From: Escherichia phage vB_EcoM_SYGD1
Sequence record: MW883059
DNA length: 64,000 bases
Strand: one strand, 5' to 3'
Part shown: piece after piece, positions 3,545 through 32,645 of the stretch
Position numbering within the stretch: the first letter of the stretch is position 1
Layout: every line of letters starts with the position of its first letter
Made by a program: the position numbers and the translations under genes
The notes under the pieces: generated by a model
Database searches by the model: none
What the model was told of the DNA's origin: nothing
Seen by the model: only the letters and a program-made list of their open reading frames with translations

Positions 3545-5233
3545 ATGAAATCATTTAAACTTAATAGAGTAAAATATAAAAATATAATGTCAGTTGGTCA
3601 AAATGGAGTTGACATTCAACTAGATAAGGTTCAAAAAACTCTTATTACTGGACGAAATGGCGGTGGTAAGTCTACTATGTTAGAAGCCATCACATTTGGG
3701 CTTTTCGGCAAGCCATTCCGTGATGTAAAGAAAGGTCAATTAATAAACAGCACAAATAAGAAAGAACTTTTAGTTGAACTGTGGATGGAATATGATGAGA
3801 AAAAGTACTATATCAAAAGAGGACAAAAACCAAACGTTTTCGAAATCACCGTTAACGGTACACGTCTTAATGAATCTGCCAGCAGTAAAGATTTCCAAGC
3901 AGAATTTGAACAGCTTATCGGAATGTCATATGCCAGTTTCAAGCAGATTGTTGTCCTTGGTACAGCAGGGTATACCCCTTTCATGGGTTTGTCGACCCCT
4001 GCGCGAAGAAAGCTTGTGGAAGACCTGCTTGAGGTAGGAACATTAGCTGAAATGGATAAGCTTAATAAAGCACTAATACGTGAATTAAATTCACAAAACC
4101 AAGTACTTGATGTTAAAAAAGATAGTATTATCCAACAAATTAAAATATATAATGATAACGTTGAACGCCAGAAAAAATTAACTGGTGATAACCTTACTCG
4201 TCTGCAGAATATGTATGACGATTTGGCAAAGGAAGCTAGAACGCTAAAATCGGAAATAGAAGAAGCTAATGAAAGATTAGTTAATATTGTTTTGGATGAA
4301 GACCCGACTGATGCATTTAATAAAATCGGTCAAGAAGCAGTTTTAATTAAATCAAAAATTGACTCGTATAATAAAGTCATTAATATGTATCACGAAGGTG
4401 GATTATGTCCAACCTGTTTGTCACAATTAAGTTCCGGTGATAAAGTTGTTTCTAAAATTAAAGATAAAGTTTCTGAATGCACGCATTCGTTTGAACAGCT
4501 TTCAACACATCGTGATAATTTAAAAGTTCTTGTTGATGAATACCGAGATAATATTAAAACCCAGCAGACGTTGGCAAATGATATTCGCAATAAAAAGCAA
4601 TCTCTAATCACGACGGTAGATAAAGCTAAAAAAGTTAAAGCAGCTATAGAAAAAGCATCATCTGAGTTTATTGACCATGCTGATGAAATAGCACTGCTTC
4701 AAGAAGAACTTGATAAAATTGTTAAGACAAAAACTAATTTAGTAATGGAAAAATACCACAGAGGAATTTTGACTGATATGCTCAAAGATTCTGGTATTAA
4801 AGGTGCTATTATTAAAAAGTACATTCCATTATTTAATAAGCAGATTAACCATTATCTTAAAATAATGGAAGCGGATTATGTGTTTACATTAGATGAAGAA
4901 TTTAATGAGACAATTAAATCCCGTGGTCGTGAAGATTTTAGTTATGCTTCATTTAGTCAAGGTGAAAAAGCACGAATTGATATTGCTCTTTTATTTACTT
5001 GGCGTGATATTGCTGAAAAAGTTTCAGGTGTTAAAATAAGTTGTTTATTTCTTGATGAAGTGTATGACGGTGCATTTGATGCTGAAGGTATTAAAAATGT
5101 GGCTAAAATTTTAGATGGTTTGAAGGATACCAACTTCTTCATAATTTCGCATAAAGACCATGACCCACAGGAATATGGTCAGCACATTCAAATGGAAAAA
5201 GTTGGTAGATTTAGTTTAGCTAAGATTAGCTAG
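3545..5233 (+). CDS. 46: gp46 recombination endonuclease ATPase subunit (Rad50/SbcC-like)
   Basis: 562 aa; Walker A GRNGGGKST near the N-terminus, long coiled-coil middle with CPTC zinc hook, Walker B/D-loop LFLDEVYDGAFD near the C-terminus. Confidence 0.9.
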   Translation: MKSFKLNRVKYKNIMSVGQNGVDIQLDKVQKTLITGRNGGGKSTMLEAITFGLFGKPFRDVKKGQLINSTNKKELLVELWMEYDEKKYYIKRGQKPNVFEITVNGTRLNESASSKDFQAEFEQLIGMSYASFKQIVVLGTAGYTPFMGLSTPARRKLVEDLLEVGTLAEMDKLNKALIRELNSQNQVLDVKKDSIIQQIKIYNDNVERQKKLTGDNLTRLQNMYDDLAKEARTLKSEIEEANERLVNIVLDEDPTDAFNKIGQEAVLIKSKIDSYNKVINMYHEGGLCPTCLSQLSSGDKVVSKIKDKVSECTHSFEQLSTHRDNLKVLVDEYRDNIKTQQTLANDIRNKKQSLITTVDKAKKVKAAIEKASSEFIDHADEIALLQEELDKIVKTKTNLVMEKYHRGILTDMLKDSGIKGAIIKKYIPLFNKQINHYLKIMEADYVFTLDEEFNETIKSRGREDFSYASFSQGEKARIDIALLFTWRDIAEKVSGVKISCLFLDEVYDGAFDAEGIKNVAKILDGLKDTNFFIISHKDHDPQEYGQHIQMEKVGRFSLAKIS

Positions 5234-5942
5234 GTTTATATTTACAATTATCATTATGCCATCTTGATAAATTTCCGAAAGTGGTAACTTTACCACAATG
5301 GACGCAAGTACCAGTCTTTTCAGTTTTCTTGCGTCCATTTGGATTTTTCTTGCAGAAATTTCTATGCGCTGCGATAACGCATTTCTTGCCTATCATTCCG
5401 CAGAATTCGCAGGATGTTTCTTCAAGAACGATTGCTTTAAGCCCGTTTGAGATATTATTTCTGTGTTCTTTAGACATTGGCGGTCTAACTTTAGGATTGG
5501 GGTGATTTGGGCAGTTATCAAAATGCCATCGATTCATATTCCCGCTTAATCCAGACTTACCGCAATGTGGACAAGTTAGTCTTGCTTTATTAGCTACTGC
5601 ATCGGACATTTTCTTTCGTGTCTCTTGGGAGAACTCTTTATTCTTTTCTATTTCCCAGAGTTTACGACGAATCCAGCCGAAAGTTTTATTGTTACGTTTA
5701 GCGTATTTCGTAGAAACTGTCATCATGTTAGCAGCATAGACTAATTTTGGTTCAGAAGGATAAATTTTTACTAAAAGTTGATGAGCTACATAGTGCTCTT
5801 CTGGTGTTAAATCTACTAAGTTTGAAGCATCATCGCTGCCATTTAAACAGCGTGGTATAATGTGATGAGATTCAGTATAGCAATCAAGTTTTCGAGATTT
5901 AGCATTAGAGATTAACTTTTCATAAATTAGTTTATAATTCAT
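5226..5942 (-). CDS. HNH homing endonuclease with three C-terminal zinc-finger repeats, antisense to flanking early genes
   Basis: 238 aa; N-terminal HNH core YTESHHIIPRCLNGSDDASNLVDLTPEEHYVAH; three repeats of CxxCG...(R/N)WHxDNC; 3' end overlaps the gene 46 stop by 8 nt on the opposite strand. Confidence 0.75.
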   Translation of the reverse strand: MNYKLIYEKLISNAKSRKLDCYTESHHIIPRCLNGSDDASNLVDLTPEEHYVAHQLLVKIYPSEPKLVYAANMMTVSTKYAKRNNKTFGWIRRKLWEIEKNKEFSQETRKKMSDAVANKARLTCPHCGKSGLSGNMNRWHFDNCPNHPNPKVRPPMSKEHRNNISNGLKAIVLEETSCEFCGMIGKKCVIAAHRNFCKKNPNGRKKTEKTGTCVHCGKVTTFGNLSRWHNDNCKYKPS

Positions 5943-12943: not shown

Positions 12944-13684
12944 ATGATTAGTGACTCTATGACAGTTGAAGAAATCCGTCTTCATTTGGGGCTTGCATTA
13001 AAGGAAAAAGATTTCGTAGTTGATAAAACTGGCGTTAAAACTATTGAAATTATTGGCGCATCATTTGTAGCAGATGAACCGTTTATTTTTGGCGCTCTTA
13101 ATGATGAATACATTCAGCGTGAACTTGAATGGTATAAATCTAAAAGTTTGTTTGTTAAAGATATTCCGGGTGAAACACCAAAGATTTGGCAACAGGTAGC
13201 ATCTTCTAAAGGCGAAATTAACTCGAATTATGGTTGGGCTATCTGGTCAGAAGATAACTATGCCCAGTATGATATGTGTTTAGCTGAGCTTGGTCAAAAT
13301 CCTGATTCTCGACGTGGTATCATGATTTATACTCGTCCATCCATGCAATTTGACTACAATAAAGATGGCATGTCAGATTTCATGTGTACGAATACAGTAC
13401 AGTACCTGATTCGTGATAAGAAAGTCAATGCAGTAGTTAACATGAGAAGTAATGATTGTTGGGCAGGCTATCGTAATGATTATGCATGGCAAAAATACGT
13501 ATTAGATAAATTAGTATCTGATTTGAATACAGGCGACCCGTCGCGGCAATATAAAGCAGGTTCTATTATATGGAATGTTGGAAGTCTTCATGTGTACGAA
13601 AATCAATTTTATTTAGTTGACCATTGGTGGAACACCGGTGAAACTCACATTGCTAAAAAGGATTATACCGGAAAATGGAAGTAA
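12944..13684 (+). CDS. 42: gp42 dCMP hydroxymethylase
   Basis: 246 aa, thymidylate-synthase-like fold; same length and position as T4 gp42. Confidence 0.9.
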   Translation: MISDSMTVEEIRLHLGLALKEKDFVVDKTGVKTIEIIGASFVADEPFIFGALNDEYIQRELEWYKSKSLFVKDIPGETPKIWQQVASSKGEINSNYGWAIWSEDNYAQYDMCLAELGQNPDSRRGIMIYTRPSMQFDYNKDGMSDFMCTNTVQYLIRDKKVNAVVNMRSNDCWAGYRNDYAWQKYVLDKLVSDLNTGDPSRQYKAGSIIWNVGSLHVYENQFYLVDHWWNTGETHIAKKDYTGKWK

Positions 13685-14316
13685 ATGTTCCACATGTTTA
13701 TAAGTATAAACATCCTAAAACTAAAAAGTGGTATATAGGAAGTCATGATGGTCACAACCCGAATTATGATGGTTCGGGTGTAGTTTGGCAGCATGCTAAA
13801 AAGAAATATGGAATAAAATCCTTTAATAAAGAAATATTATATGAAGGACCGATGTTTAGACAAGTTGAAGAAATTATTTTAACTTGTTTAGATGCTGCTA
13901 ATTGCCCGGATTCATATAATTTAAAGAATGAAGCGTGGGGAGGAAGTTTTCCAGGTAAATTAAATGGAATGTACGGTAAGAAACTATCTCCAGAAGAAAG
14001 ATATAAATGTGGAAATGCCTTTCGTGGAATCAAGCGTCCTGATCATTCTAAAAGAATGAAAGGCGAAGGTAATCCAATGTATGGTAAAAATGAGCAGGCA
14101 TATGGAATTATAAATCGAGCAAAGGAAAATTCTGGTAAAACTTATGAAGAAATTTTTGGCGCAGAAAAAGCTAAAATAATTAAAGAAACGATGTCTAAAA
14201 ATCGTAAAGGAAAACCTCATAATTTGATAGAAAAAATATGTCCGCATTGCGGACTAAAAGGACGTGGGCCAAATATGACAAGATACCATTTTGACAAATG
14301 TAAGGCACTTAAATGA
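13675..14316 (+). CDS. GIY-YIG homing endonuclease (Seg-like) with C-terminal zinc finger
   Basis: N-terminal GIY-YIG motifs VYKYKH ... KKWYIGSH; C-terminal CPHCGLKGRGPNMTRYHFDKC; start overlaps the gene 42 stop. Confidence 0.7.
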   Translation: MEVNVPHVYKYKHPKTKKWYIGSHDGHNPNYDGSGVVWQHAKKKYGIKSFNKEILYEGPMFRQVEEIILTCLDAANCPDSYNLKNEAWGGSFPGKLNGMYGKKLSPEERYKCGNAFRGIKRPDHSKRMKGEGNPMYGKNEQAYGIINRAKENSGKTYEEIFGAEKAKIIKETMSKNRKGKPHNLIEKICPHCGLKGRGPNMTRYHFDKCKALK

Positions 14317-15155
14317 TTCAATTCGTAATTCCAAGCTATCAACGCGTAGGGGCAGTTTCTGCCCTTGATATGTTTCCATCTGATTATGAACCACATATTG
14401 TAGTACGTGAACACGAAGAAAAAGCTTATTATGATGCTTATGGGTCTAGAGCTAAAATTATAACTATTCCTGATGATGTCAATGGAATTGCTGGTACTCG
14501 TAAAGCGATTACTGATATGTATGCAGGTCAACGAATTTGGATGATCGATGATGATACTACTATTCGTATGAGTTCAATGCGAAAGAAAGATGATCGTCGC
14601 TGTGTAGATAAAATTAATCAGTTAACCCGTGAACAGTTCTATGAATTGATTCAATACGTTGAAGATGCTATGGATTGCGGGTATTATCATGGTCATGCTC
14701 GTCTACCTATTTTTAAAATTACTTCATCTTGGGGTAATTATCGTGAAAATTCATATGGATTCACGAATACATGGTATGACCTCGGGAAACTTACAACAGA
14801 ACAAATTGGGTATGGAAAAATTGATTTATGCGAAGATATGTATGCATTTCTCAATTTAATTAATCAAGGTTATCCGCATTTGGCTTTGTTCAAATATCTG
14901 GTTGTGTCTGGAAAAGCACAAGCTCCTGGCGGATGTAGTTCAATTCGTAGTAATTCAAAACATAATAGAGCTCTTGAGCAAATCAATAGAGAGTTTCCAG
15001 AGCAAGCTCGTTGGAAAACATCGAATATTGAAAAGAGAAAATCGTTGGGTGAAGAAGACGAGCCATTAAAGGTTCTTCGTATGTGTGTTTCACGTAAAGA
15101 AAAGTCAGAAGCATTTCATAAGTTTAATGCTATTCATCCAATAGCAGTTGATTAA
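14313..15155 (+). CDS. putative DNA-modifying glycosyltransferase (GT-A-like, DxD motif), not T4-type beta-gt
   Basis: 280 aa with WMIDDDTTI; occupies the T4 beta-gt position between 42 and uvsX but does not resemble T4 beta-gt (351 aa) as I recall it. Confidence 0.5.
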   Translation: MIQFVIPSYQRVGAVSALDMFPSDYEPHIVVREHEEKAYYDAYGSRAKIITIPDDVNGIAGTRKAITDMYAGQRIWMIDDDTTIRMSSMRKKDDRRCVDKINQLTREQFYELIQYVEDAMDCGYYHGHARLPIFKITSSWGNYRENSYGFTNTWYDLGKLTTEQIGYGKIDLCEDMYAFLNLINQGYPHLALFKYLVVSGKAQAPGGCSSIRSNSKHNRALEQINREFPEQARWKTSNIEKRKSLGEEDEPLKVLRMCVSRKEKSEAFHKFNAIHPIAVD

Positions 15156-15173
15156 TGCCTAAATTTATTGTGT

Positions 15174-15179
15174 TATAAT
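15174..15179 (+). promoter_or_regulatory. extended -10 promoter element (TGT-TATAAT) upstream of uvsX
   Basis: TGTTATAAT read directly; no clear GTTTAC -35 at standard spacing. Confidence 0.35.
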
Positions 15180-15232
15180 TACCCTATCTTTAACCAGTGA
15201 GGAAAATATAATGATGCCTATGGAAAAAATGA

Positions 15233-16162
15233 ATGTCTATTGCAGATTTAAAATCCCGTTTGATTAAAGCTTCCACTTCTAAAATGACTGCTGAACTGAC
15301 TACATCTAAATTCTTTAATGAAAAGGATGTAATCCGTACAAAAATCCCAATGCTTAATATCGCTATTTCCGGTGCGATTGATGGCGGTATGCAGTCTGGT
15401 TTAACTATTTTTGCAGGTCCTTCTAAACACTTTAAATCAAATATGTCTTTGACTATGGTTGCGGCGTATTTGAACAAATATCCTGACGCGGTTTGTCTAT
15501 TTTATGATAGCGAATTTGGTATTACTCCAGCTTATTTGCGGTCCATGGGAGTTGACCCTGAACGAGTAATTCATACGCCAATTCAGTCAGTTGAACAACT
15601 GAAAATTGATATGGTGAATCAGCTTGAAGCTATCGAGCGCGGTGAAAAAGTTATTGTATTCATCGACTCAATCGGTAATATGGCTTCTAAGAAAGAAACG
15701 GAAGATGCCTTGAATGAAAAATCTGTGGCAGATATGACTCGTGCTAAATCACTGAAGTCATTATTCCGTATTGTTACTCCTTATTTTAGTATTAAAAACA
15801 TTCCATGTGTTGCGGTTAACCATACAATTGAAACAATTGAAATGTTTAGTAAAACCGTGATGACAGGTGGTTGTGTTATTGCTGGTACTAAAATCCAGAT
15901 GTCCGATGGTTCTACTAAAGCAGTTGAAGATATTCGTCCAGGTGAGCGTGTTAAAACCATGGTCGGTGATAATGAAGTAACTTATGTTTGGGACCCCGAA
16001 ACTCTGGCTGAAGGTACTCCTGAATGTTTCGAAATTGAATTCGAAGACGGTTATAAAGTAACTACTTCAGATACTCACAAGTTCCTGGTAATGGTTAAAG
16101 ACATTCCAACTTGGGTTGAAGCTAAAGATTTAGTAGCTGGAATGGATTGTGTTGTAAGGTAA
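15233..16162 (+). CDS. uvsX: UvsX recombinase N-terminal fragment (residues 1-213) fused to an intein N-half (96 aa), then stop
   Basis: The first 213 aa are near-identical to T4 UvsX as I recall it (Walker A GPSKHFKS). From Cys214 (nt 15872) the sequence CVIAGTKIQ...TSDTHKFLV...MDCVVR has intein block A/B character and ends at tandem TAA TAA stops. Confidence 0.85.
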   Translation: MSIADLKSRLIKASTSKMTAELTTSKFFNEKDVIRTKIPMLNIAISGAIDGGMQSGLTIFAGPSKHFKSNMSLTMVAAYLNKYPDAVCLFYDSEFGITPAYLRSMGVDPERVIHTPIQSVEQLKIDMVNQLEAIERGEKVIVFIDSIGNMASKKETEDALNEKSVADMTRAKSLKSLFRIVTPYFSIKNIPCVAVNHTIETIEMFSKTVMTGGCVIAGTKIQMSDGSTKAVEDIRPGERVKTMVGDNEVTYVWDPETLAEGTPECFEIEFEDGYKVTTSDTHKFLVMVKDIPTWVEAKDLVAGMDCVVR

Positions 16163-16165
16163 TAA

Positions 16166-16207
16166 ATATGGGTACCGGACTAATGTATATTTTTGAGGTA
16201 CCCATAT
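16166..16207 (+). promoter_or_regulatory. perfect 11-bp hairpin (ATATGGGTACC / GGTACCCATAT) sequestering the RBS and start codon of the endonuclease gene
   Basis: The 3' arm (16197-16207) covers the last GG of the GAGG Shine-Dalgarno and the AT of the ATG at 16206; 20-nt loop; AATAAATA (16161-16168) immediately 5' resembles a late promoter. Confidence 0.55.
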
Positions 16208-16928
16208 GAATTTTGTCTATAAAATTGTGTTCAACGATAGAATTAAAAACGGCACTCCGCCATATTACTACATAGGGAGCAAGACAAATGCTTCTTATGT
16301 AGATGGTAAGATTATTGACGCCCACGGTCGTGAGTACTATGGCTCATCGAGATATCCCGGATATCATGATTTTATCAATAATGTTACTGTTGAAATATTG
16401 GAGCAATATGATGATATTAAACACACTAAACTGCTAGAGCGCGAAAATTTCTATCAGAAACAAGTAAATGTTAAAACAAATCCAGATTATTTTAATTTAG
16501 ATTATGCTTGTGGGCATAATTCATATGCTAATGCTGATTTTGCATCATACAAGCATTATATAACAGGTAAATGTATTCGTCTTGAAAGAAACCATCCGCT
16601 TGTTAAATCTGGTGTGTATGTTGGCGTCACAAAAGGCGTGAAATCTTCTGATGAACACCGTAAGCACATATCAGAAGGTATTACCGGAGAAAACAATGGG
16701 TTCTATGGTAAGAAACACACTAAAGAAACAATTAATAAAATATCAGAAAAAGCAAAGAAAAGATTAAAGCATTCCCATCCTAGACAAAAAGGTGTTATCA
16801 TAAACGGTATTGAATACCGGGGCGTCAGACCTGCTGCAAGAGCGTTGGGAATTAATCCTAACACAATTATCAACAAAATTAAAGCTAATATAAAAGGATG
16901 GGCTTATGCAGTAGATGCACGCGGTTAA
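16206..16928 (+). CDS. free-standing GIY-YIG homing endonuclease (Seg-like) located between the two uvsX fragments
   Basis: 240 aa; GIY-YIG motifs FVYKIVF ... PPYYYIGSK; own RBS; different reading frame from the upstream uvsX fragment; paralogous to the ORF at 60053..60685. Confidence 0.75.
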   Translation: MNFVYKIVFNDRIKNGTPPYYYIGSKTNASYVDGKIIDAHGREYYGSSRYPGYHDFINNVTVEILEQYDDIKHTKLLERENFYQKQVNVKTNPDYFNLDYACGHNSYANADFASYKHYITGKCIRLERNHPLVKSGVYVGVTKGVKSSDEHRKHISEGITGENNGFYGKKHTKETINKISEKAKKRLKHSHPRQKGVIINGIEYRGVRPAARALGINPNTIINKIKANIKGWAYAVDARG

Positions 16929-17036
16929 GGCATTCGAAGATATGGTAAAAGAATTTGGAATGAACATGACAATCAAGATTATGCTTTCATGAAATATGTA
17001 TATTGAAACTAGCTACTACGAAACACAAGGTAAAGT

Positions 17037-17684
17037 ATGAAAATTAAATCTGTTAAATCTGTTGGTAAAAAAGAAGTCTATGATTTGTCTGTTGCTGACG
17101 TCGAGCATTATGTTTTAGAAAATGGTATCGTTACACACAACACAGGCGTAATGTATTCGGCTGATACTGTGTTCATTATCGGTAAGCGTCAGATTAAAGA
17201 TGGTTCTGATCTTCAAGGGTATCAATTTGTTCTAAATGTAGAAAAATCTCGTACCGTTAAAGAAAAAAGTAAATTCTTTATTGATGTTAAATTTGACGGT
17301 GGTATCGATCCTTATTCTGGATTGTTAGATATGGCTCTAGAATTAGGATTTGTAGTAAAACCTAAAAATGGCTGGTATGCTCGTGAATTTCTTGACGAAG
17401 AAACCGGCGAGATGATTCGCGAAGAAAAATCTTGGCGTGCAAAAGATACCAATTGCACTACATTCTGGGGTCCTTTATTTAAGCATCAACCATTCCGAGA
17501 TGCTATTAAACGTGCTTATCAGTTAGGTGCTATTGATAGTAATGAAATTGTTGAAGCTGAAGTTGATGAATTGATTAACTCAAAGGTTGAAAAATTTAAA
17601 TCTCCAGAAAGTAAAAACAAATCAGCAGCTGATTTAGAAACTGACCTAGATCAGTTAAGTGATATGGAAGAATTTAATGAATAA
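17037..17684 (+). CDS. uvsX: intein C-half (35 aa) fused to the UvsX recombinase C-terminal fragment (180 aa)
   Basis: After ...IVTHN the sequence TGVMYSADTVFIIGKRQIKDG...SDMEEFNE matches the T4 UvsX C-terminal half as I recall it; RBS AAGG precedes the ATG at 17037. Confidence 0.85.
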   Translation: MKIKSVKSVGKKEVYDLSVADVEHYVLENGIVTHNTGVMYSADTVFIIGKRQIKDGSDLQGYQFVLNVEKSRTVKEKSKFFIDVKFDGGIDPYSGLLDMALELGFVVKPKNGWYAREFLDEETGEMIREEKSWRAKDTNCTTFWGPLFKHQPFRDAIKRAYQLGAIDSNEIVEAEVDELINSKVEKFKSPESKNKSAADLETDLDQLSDMEEFNE

Positions 17685-18015
17685 AGATGATTTAGATTTA
17701 GAAATTATCGACGAATCCCCCTCTTCGGAGGGGGAAGAAGAAAGAAAAGAACGTCTTTTTAATGAATCCCTTAAGATAATTAAATCTGCCATGGAAAATG
17801 TTATCCAGGAGATTATCATTAAACTAGAAGATGGTTCTACACACATTGTGTATGTGACAAAATTAGATTGGGTTGATGGAAAAGTCGTAATGGACTTTGC
17901 TGTTCTTGACCAAGAAAGAAAAGCTGAGTTAGCTCCTCATGTAGAAAAATGTATTACAATGCAACTACAAGATGCATTTAATAAAAGGTCAAAGAAAAAA
18001 TTTAAATTCTTTTAA
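17659..18015 (+). CDS. 40: gp40 head-vertex assembly protein
   Basis: Position between uvsX and 41; the track start is GTG, an alternative ATG start at 17677 overlaps the uvsX stop. Confidence 0.55.
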   Translation: MIWKNLMNKDDLDLEIIDESPSSEGEEERKERLFNESLKIIKSAMENVIQEIIIKLEDGSTHIVYVTKLDWVDGKVVMDFAVLDQERKAELAPHVEKCITMQLQDAFNKRSKKKFKFF

Positions 18016-18024
18016 GGAGTAAGT

Positions 18025-19452
18025 GTGGTAGAAATTATTCTTTCTCATCTCATATTTGATCAAGCTTATTTTTCAAAAGTTTGGCCATATATGGATTCAG
18101 AATATTTTGAAAGTGGTCCAGCTAAAAATACATTCAAATTAATTAAATCTCATGTTAATGAGTACCATAGCGTTCCATCTATTAATGCGTTAAATGTTGC
18201 ATTAGAAAATAGTTCATTTACTGAAACAGAATATTCTGGTGTAAAAACACTTATTTCAAAACTAGCCGATTCTCCGGAAGACCACAGCTGGTTAGTAAAA
18301 GAAACAGAAAAATATGTTCAGCAAAGGGCGATGTTTAATGCTACGTCTAAAATAATTGAAATTCAAACTAATGCTGAGCTTCCTCCGGAAAAACGCAATA
18401 AGAAAATGCCGGATGTTGGTGCTATTCCTGACATCATGCGTCAAGCATTATCAATTTCATTTGATAGCTACGTTGGCCATGATTGGATGGATGACTATGA
18501 AGCACGTTGGCTATCTTATATGAATAAAGCTCGTAAGGTTCCATTTAAACTCAAAATTCTAAATAAAATTACTAAAGGCGGAGCTGAAACTGGAACACTG
18601 AACGTTTTAATGGCTGGTGTTAACGTTGGTAAGTCATTAGGTCTGTGTTCATTGGCAGCAGATTATTTACAGCTCGGTCATAATGTTCTTTACATTTCCA
18701 TGGAAATGGCAGAAGAAGTCTGTGCTAAACGTATTGACGCTAATATGCTCGATGTTTCTCTTGATGACATTGATGATGGGCATATTTCTTATGCTGAGTA
18801 TAAAGGAAAAATGGAAAAATGGCGTGAGAAATCTACTCTCGGCCGTTTAATCGTTAAGCAATATCCTACTGGTGGAGCAGACGCTAATACATTTCGATCG
18901 CTTTTAAACGAATTAAAGCTCAAGAAGAATTTTGTTCCAACAATCATTATTGTTGACTATCTAGGTATTTGTAAATCTTGCCGCATCAGAGTTTACTCAG
19001 AAAATAGTTACACAACTGTTAAAGCCATTGCAGAGGAATTGCGTGCTCTGGCTGTTGAAACCGAAACTGTTCTTTGGACTGCAGCACAGGTTGGTAAGCA
19101 AGCTTGGGATTCTTCTGATGTTAACATGAGCGATATTGCAGAATCTGCCGGTCTTCCAGCAACAGCCGATTTTATGCTTGCGGTCATTGAAACCGAGGAG
19201 TTAGCAGCTGCTGAACAACAACTAATTAAGCAAATCAAATCACGATATGGTGATAAGAATAAATGGAATAAGTTTTTGATGGGTGTTCAAAAAGGAAATC
19301 AGAAATGGGTAGAAATTGAACAAGATTCTACTCCAACTGAAGTTAACGAAGTAGCAGGTTCACAGCAGATTCAGGCTGAACAGAACCGCTATCAAAGAAA
19401 CGAATCCACCCGAGCTCAGTTAGATGCTTTGGCGAATGAATTAAAATTTTAG
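18025..19452 (+). CDS. 41: gp41 replicative DNA helicase (DnaB-like)
   Basis: 475 aa as in T4 gp41; Walker A GVNVGKS, Walker B IIIVDYLG. Confidence 0.9.
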   Translation: MVEIILSHLIFDQAYFSKVWPYMDSEYFESGPAKNTFKLIKSHVNEYHSVPSINALNVALENSSFTETEYSGVKTLISKLADSPEDHSWLVKETEKYVQQRAMFNATSKIIEIQTNAELPPEKRNKKMPDVGAIPDIMRQALSISFDSYVGHDWMDDYEARWLSYMNKARKVPFKLKILNKITKGGAETGTLNVLMAGVNVGKSLGLCSLAADYLQLGHNVLYISMEMAEEVCAKRIDANMLDVSLDDIDDGHISYAEYKGKMEKWREKSTLGRLIVKQYPTGGADANTFRSLLNELKLKKNFVPTIIIVDYLGICKSCRIRVYSENSYTTVKAIAEELRALAVETETVLWTAAQVGKQAWDSSDVNMSDIAESAGLPATADFMLAVIETEELAAAEQQLIKQIKSRYGDKNKWNKFLMGVQKGNQKWVEIEQDSTPTEVNEVAGSQQIQAEQNRYQRNESTRAQLDALANELKF

Positions 19453-19939: not shown

Positions 19940-19969
19940 GTTTACAAGCTGATAGAGTTGTGTTATAGT
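19940..19969 (+). promoter_or_regulatory. T4-type early promoter (GTTTAC-N18-TATAGT) with an inverted repeat in the spacer
   Basis: GTTTAC 19940-19945, TATAGT 19964-19969; inverted repeat GCTGATAG / CTATCAGC flanks the -10. Confidence 0.5.
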
Positions 19970-20000
19970 AATTCTATCAGCTAATCGCGGAGAAAAGAAA

Positions 20001-22601: not shown

Positions 22602-23265
22602 ACAAAAATTTTATAGAACATATATAGTAAAAGTTAGGACGCCGAAAGGCGTCTTTTGGTACGCTGGGAAACATGAATCATTTATTGTAAATCCATATGA
22701 TGATAAATATCCGGGTTCAGGCAAAATACTATGGAACATATATCGTAAGTATGGTTTTAATTATAAAATACGTTGGTCAAAATGCCATGGTTCTAGAGAA
22801 AAATCATATGAAGTTGAACGCGAGCTAATATCTGCATTAAAACGTAAACACCCAGATACTTGCATTAATATTTCTCCTGGTGGTCAGGGTGGAGAAGGAA
22901 GAAAATGGACTGAGCAACAACGATTAGAACATAAACTTAGATTAAACAACCCTGAAACAAAAACTCGGATGAAGAATTCACAACGTATAGCCCAAAATAG
23001 AGCAGAACGAAAAGCTCGGCAATCTGAAGTAATGAAAAAGTTTTATTCAAATGGCGGAAATAAAAAGATTTCAGAAGGAACTTCAAGGGCGCAAAGAAAA
23101 GCACCGCATTGGCATGAACCACTTAAAAGCGAAATACACGAGTTATGGGTTTCTTTAGGTAAACCAGCAACAGGCCCGGTTGTAAAGGCGCTTAAAGGAA
23201 AATATGATGTAACAAGTTCAGCTCTTAAGAATTTAATTTACTTATTCAGAAAAGAAGATGTATAA
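22576..23265 (+). CDS. GIY-YIG homing endonuclease (SegF-like, adjacent to gene 56)
   Basis: 229 aa; motifs FYRTYIVKV ... VFWYAGKH; basic C-terminal DNA-binding region; start overlaps the end of gene 56. Confidence 0.65.
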   Translation: MNVKIMGIKQKFYRTYIVKVRTPKGVFWYAGKHESFIVNPYDDKYPGSGKILWNIYRKYGFNYKIRWSKCHGSREKSYEVERELISALKRKHPDTCINISPGGQGGEGRKWTEQQRLEHKLRLNNPETKTRMKNSQRIAQNRAERKARQSEVMKKFYSNGGNKKISEGTSRAQRKAPHWHEPLKSEIHELWVSLGKPATGPVVKALKGKYDVTSSALKNLIYLFRKEDV

Positions 23266-23298: not shown

Positions 23299-23544
23299 AT
23301 GGCTAGTACTCGCGGTTATGTTAATATCAAAACATTTGAGCAGAAATTAGATGGAAATAAGAAAATTGAAGGAAAGGAAATTTCTGTAGCTTTCCCTCTT
23401 TATTCTGACGTTCACAAAATTTCTGGTGCTCATTACCAGACATTCCCTTCAGAAAAAGCAGCATATACTACTGTATATGAAGAAAATCAACGTGCTGCGT
23501 GGATTGCTGCAAACGAAGATTTGTGGAAAGTAACTGGTGAATAA
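23299..23544 (+). CDS. soc: Soc small outer capsid protein
   Basis: 81 aa; MASTRGYVNIKTFEQKLDGNKKIEG... matches T4 Soc as I recall it. Confidence 0.85.
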   Translation: MASTRGYVNIKTFEQKLDGNKKIEGKEISVAFPLYSDVHKISGAHYQTFPSEKAAYTTVYEENQRAAWIAANEDLWKVTGE

Positions 23545-30874: not shown

Positions 30875-30880
30875 AAAGTT

Positions 30881-30910
30881 GTTTACTTCCTCGGTTAGTT
30901 GTGGTATTAT
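30881..30910 (+). promoter_or_regulatory. T4-type early promoter (GTTTAC-N18-TATTAT)
   Basis: GTTTAC 30881-30886, TATTAT 30905-30910. Confidence 0.5.
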
Positions 30911-30937
30911 AACACCATAGCTACTGAGGATAATAAA

Positions 30938-31438
30938 ATGAAAATTTATCGTGTTGAATCATCTTTTAGTATTCTTAATTATGAAGATGCTATAACAATA
31001 CGTCGAAATCTTTGTGTTCAAATAACGCCGTACAGGAGTATAATAGATTCATGGAGCGAAGAGTGGCTATTACACGTAGGTTATGACAGACCTAATTTTA
31101 TGCATCATAGCGATAATAATAAAAGAATTCCTTTACCACACGAAGATAAACTATTAGTTAAAAACGCTAATATAGTAATTAATACTAAGTTCAAGAAAGA
31201 TTATGTTGGAGTAGAATATCATATTCCAGGATGGTTTATAGCTCTTTATCATTTTGCTTTCGCTAGTGAATATGATATGATGAGATGGTTCACACGAGAA
31301 GAGCGGGAAGAATTATCTTCTAAAGGATTTTATCTCGCTGTATACGAAGTTCCTGAAGATGAAGTTATCATTGGCGGGCACCAAGTAATGTTCCGTAAAT
31401 CCCATGCTGAGCTCGTAGATTTTATTGAAATGAGATAA
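30938..31438 (+). CDS. hypothetical protein
   Basis: ATG at 30938 downstream of promoter and RBS GAGGA; the track start at 30899 lies inside the promoter. Confidence 0.4.
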   Translation: MKIYRVESSFSILNYEDAITIRRNLCVQITPYRSIIDSWSEEWLLHVGYDRPNFMHHSDNNKRIPLPHEDKLLVKNANIVINTKFKKDYVGVEYHIPGWFIALYHFAFASEYDMMRWFTREEREELSSKGFYLAVYEVPEDEVIIGGHQVMFRKSHAELVDFIEMR

Positions 31439-32548: not shown

Positions 32549-32645
32549 AGTTTAAAATTTTTTCATAAAACTATATACATCAGTAGTTGATTATGGTACT
32601 ATATCAATATCAACTACTGATACAGAAAACAACTTGGAGAATAAA

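Follow-up and report, generated by a model that had tools for sequence, protein, structure and literature searches.

What controls the translation of an endonuclease whose gene lies between the two halves of a split recombinase gene? The question is raised by a locus of Escherichia phage vB_EcoM_SYGD1 (sequence record MW883059), of which a 64,000-nt stretch, here called the window, was analysed; all coordinates refer to the window. The recombinase gene uvsX is interrupted there by two intein halves around a free-standing homing endonuclease gene, and the start of the endonuclease gene is drawn into a perfect RNA hairpin that begins within a T4-type late-promoter box. The structure together with sequence comparison and analogy to T4 makes it probable that the hairpin is a cis-acting translational lock, which would act on the endonuclease within the pre-replicative uvsX-40-41 unit and be released by the late promoter.

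What does the hairpin cover? It is a perfect inverted repeat of 11 bp with a loop of 20 nt, and the local sequence reads ...GTT GTA AGG TAA TAAATATGGGTACCGGACTAATGTATATTTTTGAGGTACCCAT ATG AAT TTT.... Its parts are as follows.

16166-16176, + strand: 5' arm, ATATGGGTACC (from sequence, folding and compensatory changes)
16177-16196, + strand: loop; the 5' part, GGACTAATGTA, is conserved among homologues, and the 3' part is variable in length and sequence and holds the GA of the Shine-Dalgarno sequence (from alignments)
16195-16198, + strand: Shine-Dalgarno sequence GAGG of the endonuclease, 7 nt before the ATG
16197-16207, + strand: 3' arm, GGTACCCATAT (from sequence and folding)

The 3' arm takes in the GG of the GAGG, the 7-nt spacer and the AT of the ATG at 16206-16208, and thus the stem-loop has what marks the class formed by T4 gene e, I-TevI and mobE, a 3' strand that holds Shine-Dalgarno and start codon bases. 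A first-pass annotation of this DNA had described the perfect stem over part of the GAGG and the AT of the ATG, and its coordinates and sequences are exact. Its further proposal, that the ribosome-binding site (RBS) and start are occluded in read-through RNA, is borne out by RNA folding: the probability of being unpaired lies at 0-0.07 for the paired bases (0.00 for the Shine-Dalgarno GG and 0.01-0.07 for the AU of the AUG).

The stem is thermodynamically dominant. Folded in isolation, the hairpin reaches -15.8 kcal/mol (z = -3.6), which was matched by 0 of 200 shuffles, and in read-through contexts of 250 and 500 nt the 11-bp stem remains the dominant structure. Forcing open positions -13..+5 around the start in read-through RNA costs 14.9-15.1 kcal/mol. 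With 14.9, the endonuclease RBS ties for the highest opening cost in a set of 62 starts of + strand genes of the window (median 4.65, 90th percentile 8.0). The soc gene is a known case of such translational control, and in the same survey its RBS has an opening cost of 9.4 kcal/mol.

Could this be no more than a functionless palindrome that arose by chance around a GGTACC (KpnI) core? By chance alone, 64 kb should hold about 1.3 perfect stems of 11 bp or more, and in its 71-nt context the hairpin has a folding z of only -1.9. With loops of 3-40 nt, the window holds 9 perfect stems that reach 11 bp or more, vs 1.3 +/- 1.2 in dinucleotide shuffles, and 19 of at least 10 bp vs 4.1, an enrichment of ~4.6-fold. 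A lone 11-bp stem somewhere in the window is therefore not surprising, and such stems are enriched as a class. Among the window stems of at least 10 bp, however, the one at 16166-16207 alone has an arm over the start of a real open reading frame (ORF), and it sits exactly on the RBS. A chance origin is also opposed by the compensatory changes and by the conservation described below, and by the recurrence of the architecture across the family; it is very improbable.

The evolutionary record of the stem is one of changed bases and preserved pairs. The hairpin is identical in six Tequatrovirus records. A G-C to A-U double change at the pair 16172/16201 is found in RPN226, in Gelderlandvirus CF-SP2, in the Karamviruses UFV01 and EnC07 and in Klebsiella phage Lion_ER11, where GGGTACC/GGTACCC has become GGATACC/GGTATCC and the loops are 1 or 4 nt shorter. 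In Proteus phage Pm5461 (Bragavirus), whose endonuclease is 69% identical, there is a 9-bp stem, ATAGATACC/GGTATCTAT; two bases are gone from its 3' arm, a G of the 5' arm has become A to match, and the stem still spans the region from the Shine-Dalgarno sequence to the AT of the ATG. Salmonella phage SEA1 has kept the pairing, as GCGGATAC/GTATCCGC, through two further double changes. In the set of five distinct sequences, 96.2% of cells are standard pairs and 3 of the 11 pairs have changed on both sides, a result that was reached by 4 of 500 shuffles; slid registers of the stem alignment give 19-53% pairing. Each stem variant folds alone at -10 to -15 kcal/mol, and the stem is kept in genera where the endonuclease protein is only 61-69% identical. 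Every change points the same way, and this comparison, although the sample is small, indicates that the stem is selected. Since the changes keep pairing and not sequence, selection points to the RNA.

How, then, would the stem be opened? A late-promoter box and a predicted transcript start are placed so as to remove most of the 5' arm.

16161-16168, + strand: late-promoter box AATAAATA, gp55-type, A(-13) variant (from the sequence, the conserved ATAAATA core and the T4 site list)
16174, + strand: predicted late +1 (box end + 6, from the -13..-6 position of the T4 late box)

T4 late promoters carry TATAAATA at -13..-6, and other T4-like phages have A or T at position -13 (PMC1524935). A list of 50 T4 late promoters has 32 perfect sites, and A(-13), with 9 sites, is the commonest variant (PMC2988020). 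The first-pass annotation had placed a late-promoter-like octamer immediately 5' of the stem. The octamer is present, but it is not separate from the stem, as it overlaps the first 3 bases of the 5' arm as well as the last 2 bases of the uvsX-N stop TAA at 16160-16162. Is the box a by-product of AT-richness? ATAAATA occurs 14 times in the window on both strands, vs 37.6 +/- 6.0 expected; it is ~2.7-fold depleted, and the box at the hairpin is thus not explained in this way. One of the 6 copies on the + strand is at the endonuclease hairpin. Copies of (T/A)ATAAATA stand 18-34 nt before the starts of the late genes 34, 36, t and soc of the window; for soc, TATAAATA is at 23261 and the ATG at 23299. 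These late genes, and the 95-99% identity of the window to Tequatrovirus genomes, point by sequence to gp55-dependent late transcription. The ATAAATA core is kept in RPN226 and in the group of CF-SP2, UFV01, EnC07 and Lion_ER11. The GenBank and RefSeq records of T4 contain no annotated promoter features. As a separate observation, the identical variant AATAAATA is also found on the - strand 18 nt before the start of the holin gene t (48041) and 22 nt before a 66-aa ORF (22012).

The predicted +1 at ~16174 falls inside the arm 16166-16176, the box placement of the gene e, I-TevI and mobE class. An RNA that starts at A16174 would keep ACC, 3 of the 11 bases of the 5' arm. In transcripts folded from this position the RBS opening cost drops to 3.3-3.5 kcal/mol, below the window median, and the predicted late leader 16174-16230 is unusually unstructured (minimum free energy -2.7, z = +1.95; 199 of 200 shuffles fold at least as well). 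Activity of the promoter and its exact +1 are predicted here from the sequence and from T4 precedents.

In T4, uvsX is a middle or early gene, and uvsX-40-41 form a pre-replicative unit. A candidate for the start of such transcription is present upstream.

15155-15179, + strand: promoter-like region 5' of uvsX, with TGCCTAA (MotA-box-like) and an extended -10, TGtTATAAT, at 15171-15179 (read from the sequence)

This region is presumed, by analogy, to be the source of pre-replicative read-through transcripts. A pattern scan of 14800-18200 found no terminator-like site on the + strand; with no such site between uvsX-N and the endonuclease gene and an extended -10 5' of uvsX, read-through transcription is expected, at the level of patterns. 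Might the hairpin itself be an intrinsic terminator, or an RNA processing or stability element, so that early transcripts end or are cleaved after uvsX-N? In favour are the stability of the stem, its place in an intergenic spacer and a UUUU run 5 nt past it. Yet the loop is 20 nt, where 3-8 nt would be expected, the U run is not adjacent and the + strand scan gave no match, and the hairpin was rejected as a Rho-independent terminator. Termination here would also leave uvsX-C, 40 and 41 without transcription, and none of the three has a convincing conserved promoter to itself. In Rfam, an E-value search over 15900-17100 found no matching family, the only match being a chance one to a miRNA on the opposite strand. 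Neither termination nor processing is at all likely to be the role of this stem.

The proposed switch would work as follows. Transcripts from 5' of uvsX would read through uvsX-N and intein-N, and in them 16166-16176 would pair with 16197-16207. Half of the Shine-Dalgarno sequence, the spacer and two bases of the AUG would then be buried, and the 30S subunit could not initiate on the endonuclease, while both uvsX halves would still be translated from their own RBSs. After the onset of replication, RNA polymerase with gp55, gp33 and gp45 would recognise AATAAATA at 16161-16168 and initiate near A16174. The late RNA would lack 8 of the 11 bases of the 5' arm and would have an unstructured 32-nt leader and a free RBS, and the endonuclease would be made only late. 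The timing of the protein, like the read-through, is deduced from the sequence and from what is established in T4.

Is this arrangement peculiar to the window and its close relatives? A tblastn search with the intein-N segment found a split uvsX in 27 phage records, which span Tequatro-, Gelderland-, Karam-, Braga-, Jiangsu- and Tegunavirus as well as Vibrio and Shewanella phages and include Proteus PM2, Pseudomonas PspYZU05, Yersinia TG1, Shewanella Thanatos-1 and Vibrio VmeM-32 and EniLVp02. The intervening endonucleases of the diverged records are homologues of the window enzyme at 33-48% identity; Thanatos-1 has a different GIY-YIG enzyme. The leaders of the diverged homologues cannot be aligned to the window leader. 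The design nevertheless recurs: PM2, PspYZU05 and TG1 have a perfect TATAAATA in the 5' arm or the loop of a hairpin with the Shine-Dalgarno sequence in its 3' arm, and in EniLVp02 the box is CTAAATA, as in Aeh1. Another 8 distinct loci of this design, situated behind intein-N-like tails, came from a scan of metagenomes. A scan of IMG/VR with the endonuclease gave only the Pm5461 genome again and NUMOD3-only matches.

Hairpin and box occur together across this family. NATAAATA stands 22-37 nt before the ATG in 13 of 17 intein-associated loci vs 2 of 61 control window starts (Fisher p = 1e-9), a comparison to be read with the reservation that the 17 loci are homologous and cannot be counted as independent events. 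For 11 of the 13 that have the NATAAATA box, the opening cost is predicted to fall by 6-21 kcal/mol from the read-through to the late RNA, for example from 16.6 to 3.2 kcal/mol in PM2, from 13.6 to 3.3 in TG1, from 13.6 to 2.8 in locus L056 and from 25.5 to 4.2 in locus L059. Three relatives of the enzyme outside inteins have no box and no occlusion, and their opening costs are 1.9-5.4 kcal/mol. In Thanatos-1 and VmeM-32 the annotated endonuclease start overlaps the uvsX-N end and there is no hairpin. The stem sequences have been replaced entirely but the architecture has stayed, which argues for selection on the design.

The TG1 locus (L050 2145-3099) has the endonuclease in two frames, with a 133-aa N-terminal piece directly after the hairpin and an annotated 201-aa C-terminal piece. 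This endonuclease is probably a frameshifted pseudogene, judged by its reading frames, yet the perfect TATAAATA and the RBS-occluding hairpin are kept.

Several points weigh against the lock and its late release. The covariation count rests on five distinct sequences only. In SEA1 the stem is no longer over the homologous ATG (2001), which sits 15 nt downstream (L011 1940-2003). The box of the window is not the perfect consensus, and it decays to ATTAAATA in Pm5461 and to AATAAATG in SEA1 while the stem is kept; comparison of these leaders suggests that the stem may matter without the promoter in some lineages. The release also depends on where the late RNA begins. Among transcripts folded from starts at 16172-16176, one that begins at 16172 instead would retain a 5-bp GUACC/GGUAC helix that still pairs the Shine-Dalgarno GG. 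Finally, the uvsX-N stop is only 3 nt before the 5' arm, and terminating ribosomes may open the outer pairs and leak early translation.

SEA1 also has an in-frame ATG at 1950 with a strong GAGG, overlapping the uvsX-N stop. This ATG may be the real start there, on sequence grounds, which would place the hairpin within the first 12 codons.

Could such ribosomes be the normal route to the endonuclease? The stem would then act as a coupling gate: it would block independent initiation, and the endonuclease would be translated only if a ribosome, on reaching the end of uvsX-N, unfolds the stem and starts again at the ATGA. In a variant, re-initiation would take place on a short upstream ORF (uORF), whose translation runs through the stem, and the output would be held at a low ratio to uvsX-N and not timed.

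16168-16209, + strand: uORF MGTGLMYIFEVPI with its stop, 13 codons; its start lies in the 5' arm, and its TGA shares bases with the ATG of the endonuclease (ATGA)

The closeness of the TAA at 16160-16162 to the arm is in keeping with coupling, as are the AAGG 8 nt upstream of the uORF ATG at 16168, the overlap of its TGA at 16207-16209 with the ATG at 16206, the in-frame upstream ATG of SEA1 and the hairpin-less overlaps in Thanatos-1 and VmeM-32. The uORF, however, does not follow the stem through evolution. Its frame is lost in RPN226 and in the CF-SP2 group, where the loops are 1 and 4 nt shorter, and its ATG is absent in Pm5461; the stem is kept throughout. The distance from stop to arm varies from 3 to ~30 nt across the family. 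The ribosomal helicase, reportedly the subject of work by Takyar et al. in 2005, is said to act ~11 nt 3' of the P-site codon, and from this position a ribosome that terminates at the uvsX-N stop should unwind only ~2 of the 11 bp. Coupling would also leave the family-wide late-promoter box unexplained. The uORF is probably incidental, as its loss among relatives suggests, and coupling is at most a leak pathway; as the main explanation it is improbable.

A different possibility is that the inverted repeat and the conserved loop segment act as DNA. They would be a binding site for the endonuclease that mimics its homing site in uvsX, and would allow autorepression of the late promoter, possibly alongside the RNA lock. 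The segment in question is given here as speculative.

16171-16188, + strand: operator-like segment GGTACCGGACTAATGTAT, 15/18 identical to the spliced extein junction

The idea has a precedent in I-TevI, whose operator matches the homing site at 15/20 positions and overlaps the late promoter (PMC2988022). The likeness of GGTACCGGACTAATGTAT is to the phage's own spliced extein junction (GGT followed by ACAGGCGTAATGTAT) and also to the intein-less T4 junction, and when the spacer is aligned locally with the entire 1.2-kb extein, the best match falls exactly on the junction both in the window and in RPN226; Pm5461 gives 14/18. The 5' half of the loop is conserved, though loops are normally free to vary, and the enzyme carries I-TevI-like NUMOD3 and NUMOD1-like DNA-binding modules. 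The score, on the other hand, is not significant, being reached by 21% and 78% of shuffles, and CF-SP2 and SEA1 have only 11/18. When the spacers of distant family members were compared with their own spliced uvsX (20-mer scan and Smith-Waterman), the best match fell elsewhere. The homing site of the enzyme, the extein junction, is itself only putative, and stem changes that keep pairing rather than sequence point to RNA. An operator is unlikely. The same holds for a double duty of 16171-16188, in which the segment would be an RNA lock and also a DNA operator mimicking the extein junction, and the endonuclease would repress itself like I-TevI, but inside a split intein. A likeness by eye of the PM2, EniLVp02 and PspYZU05 leaders to uvsX ...TCGGCTGATAC was considered and dropped, as the alignment of spacer against uvsX does not support it.

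How does the translational lock compare with known systems? The first-pass annotation had appealed to T4 precedent and suggested that the same switch logic applies here. The precedent is real, with gene e, I-TevI/II/III, segB and Aeh1 mobE as examples (PMC2988022; PMC3014915), and its extension to this locus is favoured by computation and comparison, that is, by the opening cost, the compensatory changes and the family architecture. That annotation mentioned neither the split intein in uvsX nor the prior report of hairpins with TATAAATA in split-intein 'fractured genes'. The report, by Dassa et al. (2009), found hairpins in 15 of 16 endonuclease 5' untranslated regions of fractured genes, 10 of them with TATAAATA, and read them by analogy with mobE (PMC2677866). 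The loci were metagenomic (GOS) assemblies with gp41, IMPDH, DnaE, NrdA/J, ligase and terminase as hosts, and uvsX appeared only as a neighbouring ORF, not as a host (PMC2677866). The present locus shares with those fractured genes a host broken at the intein insertion point, a GIY-YIG-type endonuclease between same-strand intein halves, an RNA hairpin at or over the start codon and a T4-type late box in or at the hairpin. It differs in that the host is uvsX, found in cultured Tequatrovirus coliphages and at least 8 other Straboviridae lineages, and in that the box, of the A(-13) type, straddles the start of the 5' arm and does not lie in the loop.

A further likeness is to I-TevI of the T4 td intron, a GIY-YIG enzyme in an early/middle unit, with an RBS sequestered in long RNAs and a late promoter that drops the 5' strand; an operator resembling the homing site is possibly another shared feature. 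In td, however, the host element is a group I intron, and the lock also guards intron folding, whereas here there is a split intein and no RNA splicing to protect. The I-TevI switch has also been demonstrated experimentally, with mapped ends and a hairpin-deletion phenotype, and for gene e a ~100-fold repression is recorded (PMC3014915; PMC2988022); the switch described here is a predicted one. For Aeh1 mobE the hairpin was shown to sequester the RBS (PMC3014915; PMC2988022). Located in the split nrdA, mobE (Gibb & Edgell 2007, 2009, as summarised in PMC2988022 and PMC2677866) is likewise a free-standing endonuclease gene that divides an essential gene of DNA metabolism into two ORFs of one operon, but MobE belongs to the HNH enzymes, no intein takes part in the split of nrdA, the halves assemble non-covalently and the late box is CTAAATA. 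T4 gene e and soc are similar as late genes on early read-through RNA, with an initiation region masked by upstream pairing that is missing from the late RNA; these are ordinary phage genes, not mobile ones, and their stems are unrelated in sequence.

The switch is thus not new in kind. It is established for T4 e, I-TevI and Aeh1 mobE, hairpins with TATAAATA had been reported for fractured genes, no new mechanism is involved, and a specialist would expect such a switch. What is added is the probable extension of the classic T4 late-promoter-in-hairpin switch to an endonuclease nested in the split intein of the recombinase gene uvsX, with unusually clean comparative support and tractable phages. 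An architecture, not a sequence, is maintained across many Straboviridae genera and metagenomic relatives, which speaks for real selection on the timing of the endonuclease even where there is no intron folding to protect. Fractured genes were first described from metagenomic assemblies, and cultured phages of E. coli, Shigella and Salmonella could serve as an experimental system for them. Should the double duty prove true, cultured coliphages such as HY03, ELT1 and BYEP01 would be the first to offer a fractured gene open to genetics, where the timing of the endonuclease, its autorepression and the trans-splicing of the intein could be studied together.

How is the host gene built? The window belongs to a Tequatrovirus: over 15233-17700 its identity to phage BYEP01 is 99.2%, and over the uvsX flanks it matches ~480 T4-like records at 95-99%. 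The pieces of the locus are these.

15233-15871, + strand: uvsX N-extein, 213 codons, ending in ...KTVMTGG (from the ORF list, a Pfam RecA match and by-eye alignment with T4 UvsX; junction at nt 639)
15872-16162, + strand: intein-N, 96 codons (CVIAG...TSDTHKF...DCVVR), and stop TAA at 16160-16162 (Pfam Hint, Vint and Intein_splicing matches are below curated cut-offs)
16206-16928, + strand: free-standing endonuclease gene, 240 aa, with a GIY-YIG-type N-domain (VYK...YYIGS), NUMOD3 and a NUMOD1-like C-terminus
16929-17036, + strand: spacer between the endonuclease gene and uvsX-C, variable among close relatives; it holds the uvsX-C RBS, AAGG, at 17027-17030
17037-17141, + strand: intein-C, 35 codons (MKIKS...VTHN; Pfam Intein_splicing positions 122-155)
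17142-17684, + strand: uvsX C-extein, with Thr at +1, TGVMYSADT... (Pfam T4_UVSX_C, 1.9e-39)

Two ORFs on the same strand thus carry the intein residues of a split gene, ...TVMTGG/CVIAG...TSDTHKF... followed by a stop, and MKIKS...VTHN/TGVMYSADT. The intact T4 UvsX reads ...KTVMGGG-TGPMYSADT... across the junction, and the joined intein halves match the Npu DnaE, cyanophage gp41-1 and Pho RadA inteins in a PDB sequence search. From these residues uvsX is a 'fractured gene', with intein halves around a free-standing homing endonuclease. Trans-splicing of the two products would yield a UvsX of ~44 kDa. Records often label the pieces of a split uvsX 'hypothetical' or treat them as two RecA-like genes, and the present reading corrects the annotation of the uvsX halves and the endonuclease as 'hypothetical' or separate 'RecA' proteins. 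No description of a split-intein uvsX was found in the literature searched, and the locus of the cultured coliphages may be undescribed.

The endonuclease has a significant Pfam match to NUMOD3 (3.3e-10) and a weak one to NUMOD1, and it matches PHROG homing endonuclease families. Its residues 1-103 are 45.7% identical to T4 SegG. The GIY-YIG features are VYK (3-6) and YYIGS (20-25), with E80 and N97 invariant in the family alignment; there is no match to the Pfam GIY-YIG domain at E <= 0.01. By its sequence features the enzyme is probably a SegG-like GIY-YIG/NUMOD3 homing endonuclease.

The spacer that follows the endonuclease gene differs between phages. ELT1 and HY03 have an extra 34 nt there, flanked by CATTC repeats, RPN226 is without most of the spacer, and in CF-SP2 the endonuclease and uvsX-C ORFs overlap. 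The spacer of the window has a MotA-box-like TGCTTTCA at 16982-16989 with TATATT at 16999-17004, which is not conserved. A MotA-type middle promoter at this place was considered and rejected, as the spacing is short and the sequence is missing in RPN226. A second seg-like endonuclease ORF lies at 13675-14316 (213 aa; a PHROG homing endonuclease with weak NUMOD3) and shares 10 nt with the end of gene 42. ELT1, HY03 and RPN226 have this ORF and BYEP01, SP21535 and pSe_SNUABM_01 do not; it is thus a presence/absence polymorphism.

Elsewhere in the window, further perfect hairpins outside long + strand ORFs were found at 5297-5339 (12 bp), 19947-19982 (10 bp) and 32579-32621 (13 bp). Two of the three are intergenic, and the one at 5297-5339 is inside the - strand ORF 5226-5942. 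After dexA, at 30880-30940, there is a T4-type early promoter (GTTTAC, 17 nt, TATTAT), and an upstream CCTCGG can pair with the CTGAGG Shine-Dalgarno sequence of the ORF that starts at ATG 30938. The RBS of this ORF has an opening cost of 14.9 kcal/mol in read-through RNA. The pairing suggests that an early gene may be under a comparable 'own-promoter-only' translation switch at 30880-30940.

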